A model generated the notes under the pieces. That model was not told the DNA's origin. It saw only the letters and a program-made list of their open reading frames with translations, and ran no database searches. Source: Octopus sinensis (lineage: Eukaryota). Taken from it: DNA of 29,675 bases. The position numbers were made by a program, and so were the translations under genes. The DNA is taken from contig NW_021836492.1 of NCBI RefSeq assembly GCF_006345805.1, positions 1 to 29,675 on the forward strand, read 5' to 3'. Below are positions 90-27,947 of this stretch, piece by piece (the first letter of the stretch is position 1; each line of letters opens with the position of its first letter).

Positions 90-675
90 ATGGTTTCTGA
101 TTACAAATATCTTGGGATCATACATATCATCATCTGGAAAAGACTTTCTAACTAGAAAGGGTATGGCCTGGTCAGCCTGTAATGACATGCATAAGATCTG
201 GTCATCAATCTAAGTAGAGACTTCAACTTGAAATCTTCAAAGCCACAGTCGAACCAATTCTACTATATGGTTCAGAACCCTGGACGTTATCAAAGAAGCT
301 TGAGAGGCGGTTGGATGGAACCTACACTCGCCTCCTTATGAGAGCTCAAAATCTCTCGTGGAAGCGCCATCCAACCAAAATGCAAATATATGGGAAACTA
401 CCACCTGTGTCATCTCTTGTGAAAGGTAGGAGAGTCCAGTTTGCTGGACATTGTTGTAGAGCTGAAAAAGAGATAATTTCTACTCTTCTCCTCTGGAAGC
501 CATCTGCTTGCGATACCAGAGGGCGCACACTCTCCTACCCTGATGTAATCTCCAGGGATACAGGCATCCAGCAACAGGACCTCCGTAATGCCATGATGGA
601 CCGTGAAGTCTGGCGTAGCATAGTAAATTCCATTGTCTCGACCACGGTCGAACAATGATGATGATGATGATAATA
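90..675 (+). mobile_element. 3' end of an RTE-like non-LTR retrotransposon (ORF2 RT C-terminus, frameshifted) with (TGA)n tail
   Basis: Read across frameshifts: YKYLGSYISSSGKDFLTRKGMAWSACNDMHKIW...FKATVEPILLYGSEPWTLSKKLERRLDGTYTRLLMRAQ...RRVQFAGHCCR...DREVWRSIV. The stop at 656-658 runs straight into a tgatgatgatga tandem tail. Confidence 0.85.
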
Positions 676-8594: not shown

Positions 8595-8950
8595 GTTAAT
8601 ATATTTTCTGTTGTGTCTAGGAAGAGTCATTTTCTTTTTGTGCCTTACAATTTAACACACACACCGGTAAAATTTCCACTTATTTTCATTTTTATTTTTC
8701 TAAAATTTTCATGGCGTCTTGCAACCTTTAAAATTTTCGTTGCGTCTTGCAACCTTTTCAATAGTCAAGACTATTGAAAAGGTTGCAAGATGCAACGAAA
8801 ATTTTAGAAAAAAAGAAATAAAAAATAAGTGGAAATTTTACCGGTGAGTAAAAAGGCACGAAAAGAAAATTACTCTCCCCAGACACAGCAGAATATGTTT
8901 CAACAAAGAATCTTGCAAACCAAATCCAAAAATGAAATATATTTTCTATT
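8595..8950. repeat. Long inverted repeat centred at 8767-8768 with an internal 28-29 bp tandem duplication
   Basis: taaaattttcgttgcgtcttgcaaccttttcaatagtc-aa-gactattgaaaaggttgcaagatgcaacgaaaatttta. Arms continue imperfectly to about 8600 and 8900. Confidence 0.9.
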
Positions 8951-11622: not shown

Positions 11623-12377
11623 AGGGTGCGGTGAATAAAATGTCATCGCAATTACACTAAATGAAAATAACACAGACATCTCATTTTAACCCTTTCGCTA
11701 CCGTATTTATTTTGAGATGCTCTGTGTTTTTTTCAATTACTTTAACTATAACAAAGAATTTAGTAAAATAACTTAGTAATCATTAAGCTAGTGTTAGGAA
11801 TGTAAATTGTGACTCAGGCTTGGTGGACGATTTTAATTCAAAACTTATGAAAACAAGACATTTTACCACATAACCAGAGCCGGTTTTGGCCGGGTTAGTA
11901 ACAAAATTGCATAAAAATATCTTGAAATTCTAAAGAGTAAAATCGCGACTGGCTTCAACCACGGCCTCCAGATGTCTTCGAAATCCGCTGCAACTCTTCT
12001 GGACGGTCTCCTTATTTAAGTTCGTGAATGCTGCCATACTCCTTGATTTCAGTTCAAAACAAGGAGTTTTGTTAGTCTCTCGTTCAACTGCGCCCCACAT
12101 ATAATCAAAGGAGTTGCACTCTGGGGAGTTAGGTGGCCAAATGTCCGGGGTGATATGGTCACAAAAATTGTCTGACAGCCATGACTAGGCTCTCCTGCTT
12201 GTGTGGCATGGTACAGAGTCCTGTTGCCAGTCATAGGGTCTTCCAGCAGCCACCCTCTTGACCCAGGGCAGTACTGCCTCCTCCAGGTACTTGATGTAGG
12301 CCTCTGTGTTAAGTCTGAGGCTATGTGGGAAGATCAGTGGAGGCATGACGTCGCCATCACTAGTGATCACTCCAAAC
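11623..12377 (-). mobile_element. Tc1/mariner superfamily DD37D (maT) transposon, 3' half with pseudogenised transposase
   Basis: FGVITSDGDVMPP...WQQDSVPCHTSRRA*SWLSDNFCDHITPDIWPPNSPECNSFDYMWGAVER...RRHLEAVVEA. There are 37 residues between the second and third catalytic D, one in-frame stop, and a TIR-like end agggtgcggtgaataaaatgtc at 11623. Confidence 0.9.
11686..11906. mobile_element. piggyBac-like MITE nested in the maT 3' end
   Basis: Begins TTAA-CCCTTTCGCTACC. The opposite end (agtaacaaaa) is a decayed inverted terminus. Confidence 0.5.
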
Positions 12378-12469
12378 GCCCTAACACACCCACACGCACA
12401 TACACAGACACACACGGACACACACACATATATTCTCTCTCTCTCTATGTGTGTGTGTGTGTGTTGTGT

Positions 12470-12676: not shown

Positions 12677-12737
<61 letters not shown>

Positions 12738-13144
12738 CAAAAAACACCCCATTTTCCTATGTTACTTCATAACTTTTAAGAAAAAAACCAACGTTCGTCA
12801 AATATACAAATTTCACATGGATATTATTGAAGAGCAGAAGAGTTATCTATAAATGCTTAACAATATAGAATTCCATTATTCTATATTAGCTAAGGCTATG
12901 AACTATATTTGGAATACAGGACAATATAATGGATTTTACACATAACTATTATGGATTATTACAGAAAACTAACCAAGGAAGTATATATGGATTAAAAGAC
13001 TCTCATACTAAAATGTACTTACCAACATCAAAAGCAGTAATTTTAAATTTATATTTGAAACAAACGCCATTTTACAGTATTTCTTCATATAAAAAAAAAA
13101 CAAAAAAACTACCATTTGATATATTATACAAAATTCAAATTTTA

Positions 13145-13236
13145 TATCTCTGAAGAGCAGAAGAGTTGTGTATAAATGCTTATCAACATAGGATTTCATT
13201 ATAGGGACAGCACTTCTGTGAAACGATCGTAAGATG
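13145..13236 (+). ncRNA. Type I hammerhead ribozyme, canonical core, long stem II (family F4)
   Basis: Stem I tatct/agatg; CTGAAGA 13150-13156; stem II GCAGAAG/CTTCTGT plus gttgt/acagc; GAAA 13220-13223; palindromic stem III CGATCG; GUA cleavage triplet ending at 13231. Confidence 0.8.
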
Positions 13237-13414
13237 CTCTAAAGATTTAATTCGAAACTTTTAAACTGTCATATGCATTATATATTTATACTTATACATT
13301 TTTACATATATTTATATATATTTATATTTTTAATACAACAATTATTTTACATACGTTTATATCTTTCTGAAGAATTTTCTAATATTGATTTCCTGATATT
13401 AATAATAATAAATT

Positions 13415-13444
13415 ATAATATATATATATATATATGTGTATGTG

Positions 13445-13484
<40 letters not shown>

Positions 13485-13525
13485 ATATGTGTGTGTGTGT
13501 GTGTATAATAGCACTATGACCCGGC

Positions 13526-13600: not shown

Positions 13601-13873
13601 AGGGTAAAATTAATTAATTAATCAATCAATTAATTAATAATTTTACCAAGTAGATCTGTACGTTATAATAAACTTTATAGGTAAAATTATACAAATATTC
13701 TATAATTATAAACATAATTATAATTAGGGGTCAAGTAATTGCTTCACCACATACCGAATTTAGAAATAGGAGTTAAAAATTCCTTTTCTACTACCGTAAG
13801 AATCTCCCAGACAGTATCACACTTTTTTACGTAGGCAAAGAGAAAAATAATGAATCCACACGACTCCGATTAC

Positions 13874-13933
13874 CTACAGACGCGTTCCGAGATTAAAGTA
13901 TTTAATTTACTTACTTTCCCGTCATCAGTGTAG
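13874..13933 (-). ncRNA. Type I hammerhead motif (F1) with one core substitution (GAAA to GGAA)
   Basis: ctaca CTGATGA c GGGA aagta..tactt taa TCTC GGAA CGCG TC tgtag. Stem I is perfect. Confidence 0.7.
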
Positions 13934-14161
13934 CATTTCCATTATAAAATTTGAAAGTGCTAGAGTTAAATACGTACAGGATCGATGACGGGAAGTAAGT
14001 AAATAAAATACTTTAATCTCGAAACGCGTCTGTAGGTAATCGGAGTCGTGTTGATTCGGTATTTTTCTCTTTTTGCCTACGTAAAAAACTGTGATACTGT
14101 CTGGGAGGTTTTTACGGTAGTAGAAAAGGAATTTTTAAACTCCTATTTCTAAATTCGGTAT

Positions 14162-21159: not shown

Positions 21160-22090
21160 GGTTTCAAAGTTTGGCACAAGGCCAGCAAGTTCTGGGGAAT
21201 GAGTAATCGATTACATCAACGGCAATGCTTGACTGGTTCTTATTTTATCGACCCCAAAAAAGAACGAAATGCAAAAACGACCTCGACGGAATTTGAACTC
21301 AGAACTCAGAAGACGGACGAAATGCCGCTGAGTATTTTGTCCGGCGTGCCACCGTTTCTGCCAGCTCGCAGCCTCAAAGTTTGTATTTACATCAGTTTCG
21401 AATTTTAGCACGAGTCTAGCAATTTCAGGGAAGGGAATAAGTCGATGGCATCACCCCCATTGACCAACTAGTATTTATTTTATCGACCCCGAGAGAACGA
21501 AAGGTAAAGTCGACCTCGGCGGAATTTGAACTCAGAACATAAAGGCAGAAAAAATGCCACTGAGCATCTTGGTCGGCGTGCTAACGTCTCTACAGCTCGC
21601 CGTCTTACAAATATTCAAATATTAATAAAAACGTTAAGGCGGCGAGCTGGCAGAAACGTTAGCACGCCGGGCGAAATGCGTAGTCGTATTCCGTCTGCCG
21701 TCACGTTCAAATTCAGCGGGGAACCTTGGGCAAGTGTCTTCTACTACAGCCTCGGACTGACCAAAGCCTTGTGAGTGGATTTGCTAAACGGAAACTGAAA
21801 GAATCCTGTCATGGATATATATATATATATATATATATACGTATGTGCGTGTGTGTGCGTGTGTGCGTGTGTGTGTGCGTGTGTGTGTATGTGTGAAAAT
21901 GTGTGCGTTTGTCCCCCACTACTGCTTGACAACCGGTGTTGTGTTTATGCCCTGTGACTTAGCGGTTCGGCAAAGGAGACCGACAGAATAGATATCAGGC
22001 TTAAGACAAAATAAGCACTGGAGTCGATACGTTCGACTAAAATTCTTCTTGGGGGTGCTCCAGCAGGGCCGCAGTCAAATAACTGAAATT
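21160..22090. mobile_element. SINE cluster: two family D copies (21160-21372 and 21395-21606, -), a D head (21637-21713, +) joined to a family B body (21723-22090, +)
   Basis: Segments align to the family D and B copies elsewhere in the window. Confidence 0.75.
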
Positions 22091-22532: not shown

Positions 22533-22780
22533 GCTTTATTAATAAAACTATAAAGACATTACAAAAACTGTTACTCAGAGTTTCACGTTACCGTTTGTCG
22601 GACAGTTTTGGTTGAAAATAGAACAAAATATGAACCATATTTTGTTCCATTCTCAACCAAAACTGTCCGACAAAAGGGAACGTGAAACTCTGAGTAAGAG
22701 TTTTTGTGATATCTTTGCAGCTTTATAAATAAAGCCTCTAGTATTCGAGTACTATTTTCTTCCACTTTGTTTCGCATTTA
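22533..22780. mobile_element. About 200-bp hairpin of family F2 with an HHR-like motif in each arm
   Basis: Arms 22533-22632 and 22636-22735 with a 3-nt loop. Minus: aaaactgt CCGACAA acg gtaa cgt GAAA ctctgag TA acagtttt. Plus: aaaactgt CCGACAA aag ggaa cgt GAAA ctctgag TA agagtttt. Confidence 0.85.
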
Positions 22781-23056: not shown

Positions 23057-23174
23057 GATCTCATTCGTCTGTTTGAATTCGGAAGTACTGGTCGTTGGAT
23101 ATACGTTGTCTGATGTCGCCTGGTCAGATAAGTATGTTAATTTTTCAGTGCTCTCAAATTTAATATTTTCAATT

Positions 23175-23257
23175 ACTGTACTGAAGACGAGAATGAGAGA
23201 GTAGAAATAGGATTTTACATTTTTCACATCTCTCTAACTCCGAAACGCGTATATAGT
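23175..23257 (+). ncRNA. Type I hammerhead ribozyme, canonical core (F1 family, diverged copy within 23125-23430)
   Basis: Stem I actgta/tatagt; CTGAAGA 23181-23187; stem II GAG..GAGAGA/TCTCTC..CTC with a C.C mismatch at its base; GAAA 23242-23245; CGCG; GUA site ending at 23251. Confidence 0.75.
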
Positions 23258-27897: not shown

Positions 27898-27947
27898 ATT
27901 CATCAGACAAGCTGTTTCGACCTGATGTGCTCTCTTCAGAAGTGAAT
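27898..27947 (-). ncRNA. Type I hammerhead motif, canonical core with imperfect stems (family F5)
   Basis: attcactt CTGAAGA gagc acatca ggtc GAAA cagcttg TC tgatgaat. GUC site; stem I pairs only distally (attca/tgaat); one G.G mismatch in stem II. Confidence 0.6.

Follow-up and report, generated by a model that had tools for sequence, protein, structure and literature searches.

Hydra-clade Penelope-like elements (PLEs) carry a type I hammerhead in sense orientation near their 3' end (Craig et al. 2021, PMC8557442). The features listed there for the clade are RWK and DKT motifs, a CxCX5C linker, a C-terminal endonuclease whose E and N are flanked by CxxC and CxH, and no CCHH; its elements insert into (TA)n and are generally <3 kb, and an octopus Hydra family with a hammerhead, Hydra-1_Obim, was already published in that work. 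Of the metazoan PLE hammerheads assayed in vitro so far, monomers showed no activity and dimers little (Cervera and de la Pena 2014, PMC4209133; review PMC6765202). The ribozyme of PAc, a Poseidon element of Anolis, was described as cleaving only with its protein and as dispensable for insertion in vitro (PMC11167929).

Both strands of the window (a whole contig of 29,675 bases from the 2.72-Gb genome of Octopus sinensis, rich in SINE-like repeats and microsatellites) were searched with a type I hammerhead descriptor, which gave a single match, at 13145-13236 (Table 1). On 300 locally shuffled windows, the same descriptor (stem I of at least 5 bp, stem II of at least 7 bp, stem III of at least 2 bp) gave none. 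The type I core (CUGANGA, GAAA and UH) was complete, with three helices and the open ends in helix I. Stem I formed 5 bp with U.G as its outermost pair. The proximal helix of stem II (13157-13163/13213-13219) had 7 bp and was closed by G.U rather than G-C; beyond it came an A.A mismatch, a 5-bp helix (13165-13169/13207-13211) and then weaker helices. GAAA lay at 13220-13223, and ACGAUCGU, a perfect 8-nt palindrome, at 13223-13230; helix III has 2 bp in a monomer or 8 bp in a dimer. H17 of the GUA triplet is A13231, and the cut is predicted to fall after this base.

Table 1. Features of the hammerhead and of the repeat copy that carries it (window coordinates).
Feature	Position	Strand	Basis or remark
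(TA)28 microsatellite, left flank, likely insertion target	12677-12732	.	homology to other copies begins ~12733-12746
5'-truncated 3' end (3' UTR + pLTR), assigned to a Hydra-clade Penelope-like element	12733-13425	+	repeat comparison
Internal duplicate, period ~321 nt	12740-12879	+	5' half of hammerhead only
Stem I, 5' strand	13145-13149	+	descriptor match
Catalytic core CUGAAGA (C3-A9)	13150-13156	+	descriptor match
Long stem II, 63 nt	13157-13219	+	descriptor and folding
GAAA, palindromic stem III ACGAUCGU and GUA triplet	13220-13231	+	descriptor and folding
Stem I, 3' strand	13232-13236	+	descriptor match
AT-rich rest of pLTR, up to the more frequent of the family's two 3' ends	13237-13425	+	copy comparison
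(TA)n/(TG)n microsatellite, right flank	13415-13504	.	sequence

This is a real hammerhead motif and the best-preserved one of the window. The original prediction had named a hammerhead with core nucleotides CUGAAGA, GAAA and GUA, a 5-bp stem I, a stem II of 7+5 bp, the palindrome A-CGAUCG-U as stem III and a cut after 13231; the descriptor match bore out each of these. It had also called the ribozyme "intact canonical". The core is indeed intact, but "canonical" goes too far: stem III is unstable in the monomer, the architecture is the palindromic, dimer-type one of PMC4209133, and position 10.1-11.1, where that paper describes a highly conserved G-C, is occupied by G.U. A tertiary contact between helices I and II, typical of fast natural hammerheads, was not evident by eye. 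Rfam, run on the whole window and on 13100-13300, returned no hammerhead at 13145-13236 even at E<=10, likely because of the long stem II; its miRNA matches in the window were microsatellites and hairpins below gathering scores.

The motif recurs throughout the genome. A 201-base query yielded 739 first-look candidates, 40 of which were scored (91-95% identity), and an exact pattern for both core halves matched at 123 sites while its reversed control matched at none. The motif is not a lone host ribozyme; it belongs to a dispersed repeat, whose copy in the window sits within a TA microsatellite. What had been described as a site "hidden in AT-rich DNA" turned out to be the pLTR of a retroelement family. 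The copy in the window (~690 bp) contains no ORF and ends without the ~120-nt tail that is optional in the family. Its internal duplicate, with a core reading UUGAAGA at 12827-12833, is a fixed trait of one subfamily; the half-copy is also found in L004, L005, L013, L014, L018, L025, L093 and L094.

Two walks upstream from repeat copies led into a broken ORF in the longer copies, in which pieces of an RT and GIY-YIG endonuclease reading frame were recognised by motif (L091-L097); Pfam recognised none of four such pieces. RWK stands near the ORF start in place of GxKF/Y (GMRWKAFF in L093), DKT replaces DKG (FSDKTGN in L093), and YRDD is present. The CxCX5C linker reads CSCKNKKLC, CxxC reads CRLC and CxH reads CRH; the endonuclease, with VIY..YIG, is C-terminal, and CCHH is absent from the pieces. 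Compared by eye, the pieces resemble the published Hydra-1_Obim protein. The flanks in the window and most of the 3' junctions inspected are (TA)n. Judged by these sequence motifs, the repeat belongs to the Hydra clade of Penelope-like elements. Naiad was also considered, given the TA targets, and was ruled out because the EN is C-terminal.

The ORF was broken in all seven long loci read (L091-L097), none of which held an intact copy; adding the pieces gives an estimated unit of ~3.2-3.7 kb, more than the <3 kb that is general for Hydra elements. In L091, L093 and L094 the hammerhead follows the ORF in sense orientation, and L092 is a tandem junction that runs from the hammerhead through the pLTR end and the tail to an ATG. 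The family displays the traits of EN+ Penelope-like elements: a partial-tandem pLTR, 5' truncation, 5' inversion (L021, L023, L036, L043, L048 and L060) and the optional tail.

The linkage to an ORF also bears on whether the repeat is a non-LTR retrozyme, that is, a non-coding tandem unit of ~320 nt that carries a hammerhead and spreads by RNA circles. Like animal non-LTR retrozymes (PMC7229834), the repeat has a type I hammerhead in an AT-rich ~300-nt unit; its 321-nt internal repeat includes a second core-like site, its GC content is low, and its size falls inside the 170-400 nt range given in that source. Retrozymes are non-coding tandem monomers with a whole hammerhead in each, however, whereas the window repeat forms the end of a coding element, and the duplicate upstream is a half-ribozyme that lacks the 3' half. 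The copies run unbroken into the RT/EN ORF, which largely refutes the retrozyme reading, and their 5' ends are variable rather than unit-length. We give this reading next to no probability.

Folding of 13145-13236 gave an ordinary overall energy (z = 0.21) and very uneven support for the three helices. Pair probabilities were 0.93-1.0 in stem II, 0.2-0.37 in stem I, dropping to 0 in the 191-nt and 693-nt contexts, and 0.01 in the monomer stem III. For the bare 92-mer the active monomer fold was at -14.4 kcal/mol, against a minimum of -17.0. A double hammerhead reached -43.6 kcal/mol, compared to a dimer minimum of -44.2 and to -34.0 for two monomers. Helix III is thus predicted to be stable only between two copies, and the folding energies point to a ribozyme made of two copies rather than one.

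These values argue against the motif acting efficiently on its own to cut a host transcript (an intron or lncRNA) at 13231. In favour of such a ribozyme, the core bases are all intact, and the active monomer fold is only 2.6 kcal/mol above the minimum. Among 58 ungapped copies, moreover, substitutions were rarer in the core (8/696, 1.1%) than in the loop (47/1856, 2.5%; p = 0.03), but the rows are related, and the contrast is inflated because it includes subfamily variants and related copies. Besides the near-zero probability of stem III and the loss of stem I in longer contexts, the window copy has a base other than that of most family members at 3 of its 92 positions, and one of these changes (C13170G) breaks a stem II pair; its departures resemble those of any decaying copy. 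G13170 and C13187 are variants specific to this locus. The intron on the plus strand that the original prediction had envisaged is unsupported: Pfam, applied to 140 of the 206 open stretches of the window, found no match above cut-off and so no host exon, although short exons could escape such a search. In four sequencing runs guessed to be RNA (two studies), 70 contigs matched, and since none did so at 99% identity or more, they represent other copies or relatives; some span the cut site (for example, X2 record 11, 13104-13253), but contigs cannot show ends. Taken together, we regard a stand-alone host-cutting ribozyme as highly improbable.

We consider it probable that the motif is instead a pLTR hammerhead, carried by a 5'-truncated copy of a Penelope-like element of the Hydra clade, and that it likely cuts only as two copies. 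No intact partner lies in cis with the window copy, which, as a solitary copy of what is likely a two-copy ribozyme, would rarely cut. Cutting would take place in tandem transcripts of source elements, by a mechanism that we infer, by analogy, to resemble that of the tested metazoan PLE hammerheads and of Anolis PAc. In a pLTR-ORF-pLTR transcript, two hammerheads would pair through their ACGAUCGU palindromes with the stem I strands exchanged, and the resulting double hammerhead would cut after each GUA, possibly aided by the element's own protein, to free a unit-length RNA. Reverse transcription would begin downstream of the cut, from either of two internal sites, with uncut or rejoined RNA as the template, and where it ended early, fragments such as the window copy would remain.

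We compared the ends of 93 copies, all anchored just 3' of the cut site. The 5' ends were variable, and the 3' ends were fixed at two positions: 46 copies stopped at the pLTR end and 35 continued with the ~120-nt tail, while 1 ran into the ORF leader and the remaining 11 were shorter or decayed. A clear cleavage footprint was not seen in this set, as no copy began within 2 nt of the cut and 3 began within 6 nt (1.2 expected, p = 0.12). In four copies (L113, L161, L209 and L285) the apparent 5' end lay 6 nt before the cut, close to the palindrome centre, at positions blurred by microhomology and in marginal number. The 32 nt upstream of the cut, on the 3' strand of stem II, held 14 of the 93 5' ends (5.9 expected, p = 0.003). 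In an independent second set of 74 loci anchored 128 nt downstream, this excess was not repeated (3 of the ~56 copies reaching the cut, ~3.7 expected), and L247 alone (1/74) started at the cut, inside a TA microhomology. The copy data fit equally well with a linear RNA that was never cut and with a circle formed by rejoining.

The continuity of templates across the cut site, with the whole motif held by 68 of the 93 anchored copies, is also what a catalytically lost fold would leave, with the long stem II kept as a structural signal, either to bind a protein or to make the RT pause, and the core as a relic. The same reading could draw on the excess of 5' ends just upstream of the cut, on the G.U closing pair, which is the majority state (47 of the 58 ungapped copies, G-C in 8), and on the PAc ribozyme mutants, which are described as having no insertion defect in vitro (PMC11167929). 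The excess was absent from the second set, however, and closings other than G-C, U.U among them, are common in the published Hydra hammerheads (PMC8557442). The exact core and palindrome are, furthermore, kept in seven families with unrelated stems. A relic core therefore appears decidedly unlikely to us, if somewhat less so than a stand-alone ribozyme. Variation within the family was less informative: 50 of the 58 ungapped copies keep the core and 27 keep core and palindrome, positions 13164/13212 are paired in only 15 of 93 rows, and compensatory changes are scarce; covariation is thin in a set that was picked by similarity to the motif. This scarcity, the G.U majority, the lack of a clear footprint, the broken ORFs and the length of the unit count against the preferred reading.

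Variation across families was more telling for the preferred reading of a pLTR hammerhead acting in source elements. The two core halves of the window hammerhead, CUGANGA and GAAA, are 63 nt apart. A pattern with a 27-57-nt insert followed by GAAACGATCGTA matched 361 times in the genome; among the matches listed (100 of 361), most belonged to one young family and often formed inverted pairs. Seven families, including that of the window, share the long-armed design and carry ACGAUCGU with unrelated stem sequences. In each of them a copy with a 4-6 bp stem I was found, and in six of the seven the insert folds with a basal helix. In two of these families (L198, L203) Hydra-type endonucleases are also encoded, that of L198 sharing 39% identity with the window's family over 138 residues. 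Among the lines of evidence, this across-family variation speaks most strongly for selection of the fold in the source elements.

L198, L199 and L200 make up a young Hydra-type family with near-identical hammerheads, a G-C closing pair and a 6-bp stem I; its members often form inverted pairs 0.1-4 kb apart and have open frames of 260-361 aa. The window hammerhead had been put forward as the best candidate for an active ribozyme. Within the window it is the best preserved, but the L198-L200 family is the better object for a bench test.

The Hydra-clade elements of this genome might share a distinct design, in which a 50-63-nt stem II broken after the seventh pair is combined with the 8-nt palindrome, the long arm docks the RT-endonuclease and the palindrome strictly limits cutting to paired copies. 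As ACGAUCGU is common to the seven families, pairing and mutual cutting in trans would then be possible between elements that are not related, and also for host transcripts that cross any of several hundred intact copies. This model is speculative, and we hold it to be unlikely as a whole.

Several related sequences were encountered in the course of the survey. Type I hammerheads with 12-77-nt inserts were chance finds in the flanks of L007, L020, L035, L097 and L125, with the palindromes ACGCGU, ACAUAUGU and ACACGUGU. A further Hydra-like endonuclease family, likewise abundant (150 scored matches), is represented by L092:1846-2184 and L168-L197, and its long 3' UTR is rich in TG/TA; L189 and L197 have a hammerhead with a 25-nt insert downstream, which may belong to this family.

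The window itself holds further elements. At 23172-23250 (+) lies a second type I hammerhead with a long stem II, of another family, composed of CUGAAGA, an insert of ~55 nt, GAAA, an ACGCGU palindrome and GUA, with a 6-bp stem I by eye and a C.C mismatch at the base of stem II. An inverted repeat at 13751-14161 (87% identity) bears a long-stem-II hammerhead with the ACGCGU palindrome on each arm and looks like an inverted PLE end; GGAA replaces GAAA on the minus arm (core at 13928), and CUGA is damaged on the plus arm. A short type I hammerhead-like motif at 27898-27947 (-), with an imperfect ACAGCU.GU palindrome, scored 21.5 bits with Rfam Hammerhead_1 (gathering 34). The long, near-perfect hairpins at 8730-8805, 21565-21678 and 22579-22687, whose miRNA-model scores fell below gathering thresholds, are probably short inverted-repeat elements. 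Broken frames at 11866-12400 (-) resemble the end of a Tc1/mariner transposase, and a 146-aa open stretch at 218-655 (+) resembles the end of an RTE-type LINE ORF; Pfam gave no match for either.

Hammerheads in Penelope-like pLTRs are already known, so that the locus itself is ordinary. With Hydra-clade hammerheads described, one of them from octopus, what is new here is, modestly, the long-armed variant. A description of this form was not found in the literature searched, a scope outside which lay most subscription journals, Repbase and the supplements of PMC4209133. Because Rfam and short-loop descriptors miss the long-armed form, counts of animal hammerheads are too low. We believe the form matters modestly, as seven families with one palindrome amount to a natural test series, and the series bears on the function of PLE hammerheads and on whether they act as dimers or with the element's protein.

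Compared with the Hydra hammerheads of PMC8557442, that of the window is likewise in sense, of type I and near the 3' end, in an element with the same protein motifs and (TA)n targets. It differs in the 63 nt between its core halves (12-26 nt in 26 rows of File S2, by our count), in the perfect 8-nt palindrome of its stem III, and in the longer 3' UTR with an internal half-copy. The Hydra-1_Obim hammerhead has a different sequence with an 8-nt loop 2, and the window element is for this reason of another family. With the minimal hammerheads of metazoan PLEs (PMC4209133), it shares a helix I of 4-5 bp, a proximal helix II of 7 bp, a palindromic helix III, mostly solitary copies and the proposed action as a dimer, whereas its helix II is far longer, its 10.1-11.1 pair is G.U and no additional base follows A9. 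As in PAc (PMC11167929), the pLTR hammerhead lies upstream of internal RT start sites, an optional tail separates two 3' ends, and copies are continuous across the cut site; PAc is of another clade, the tail in the window's family is ~120 nt, and the ORF of PAc starts inside stem II, whereas that of L092 starts ~360 nt downstream of the cut. A precedent for the long stem II is the PLE-X1 of Selaginella (File S2, PMC8557442), with a loop 2 of 29-34 nt. Its two rows, which the file itself marks as departing from canonical structure, are the only ones in that file near 63 nt, and they come from EN-less plant elements of another clade, whose rows carry no 8-nt palindrome such as that of the window hammerhead.
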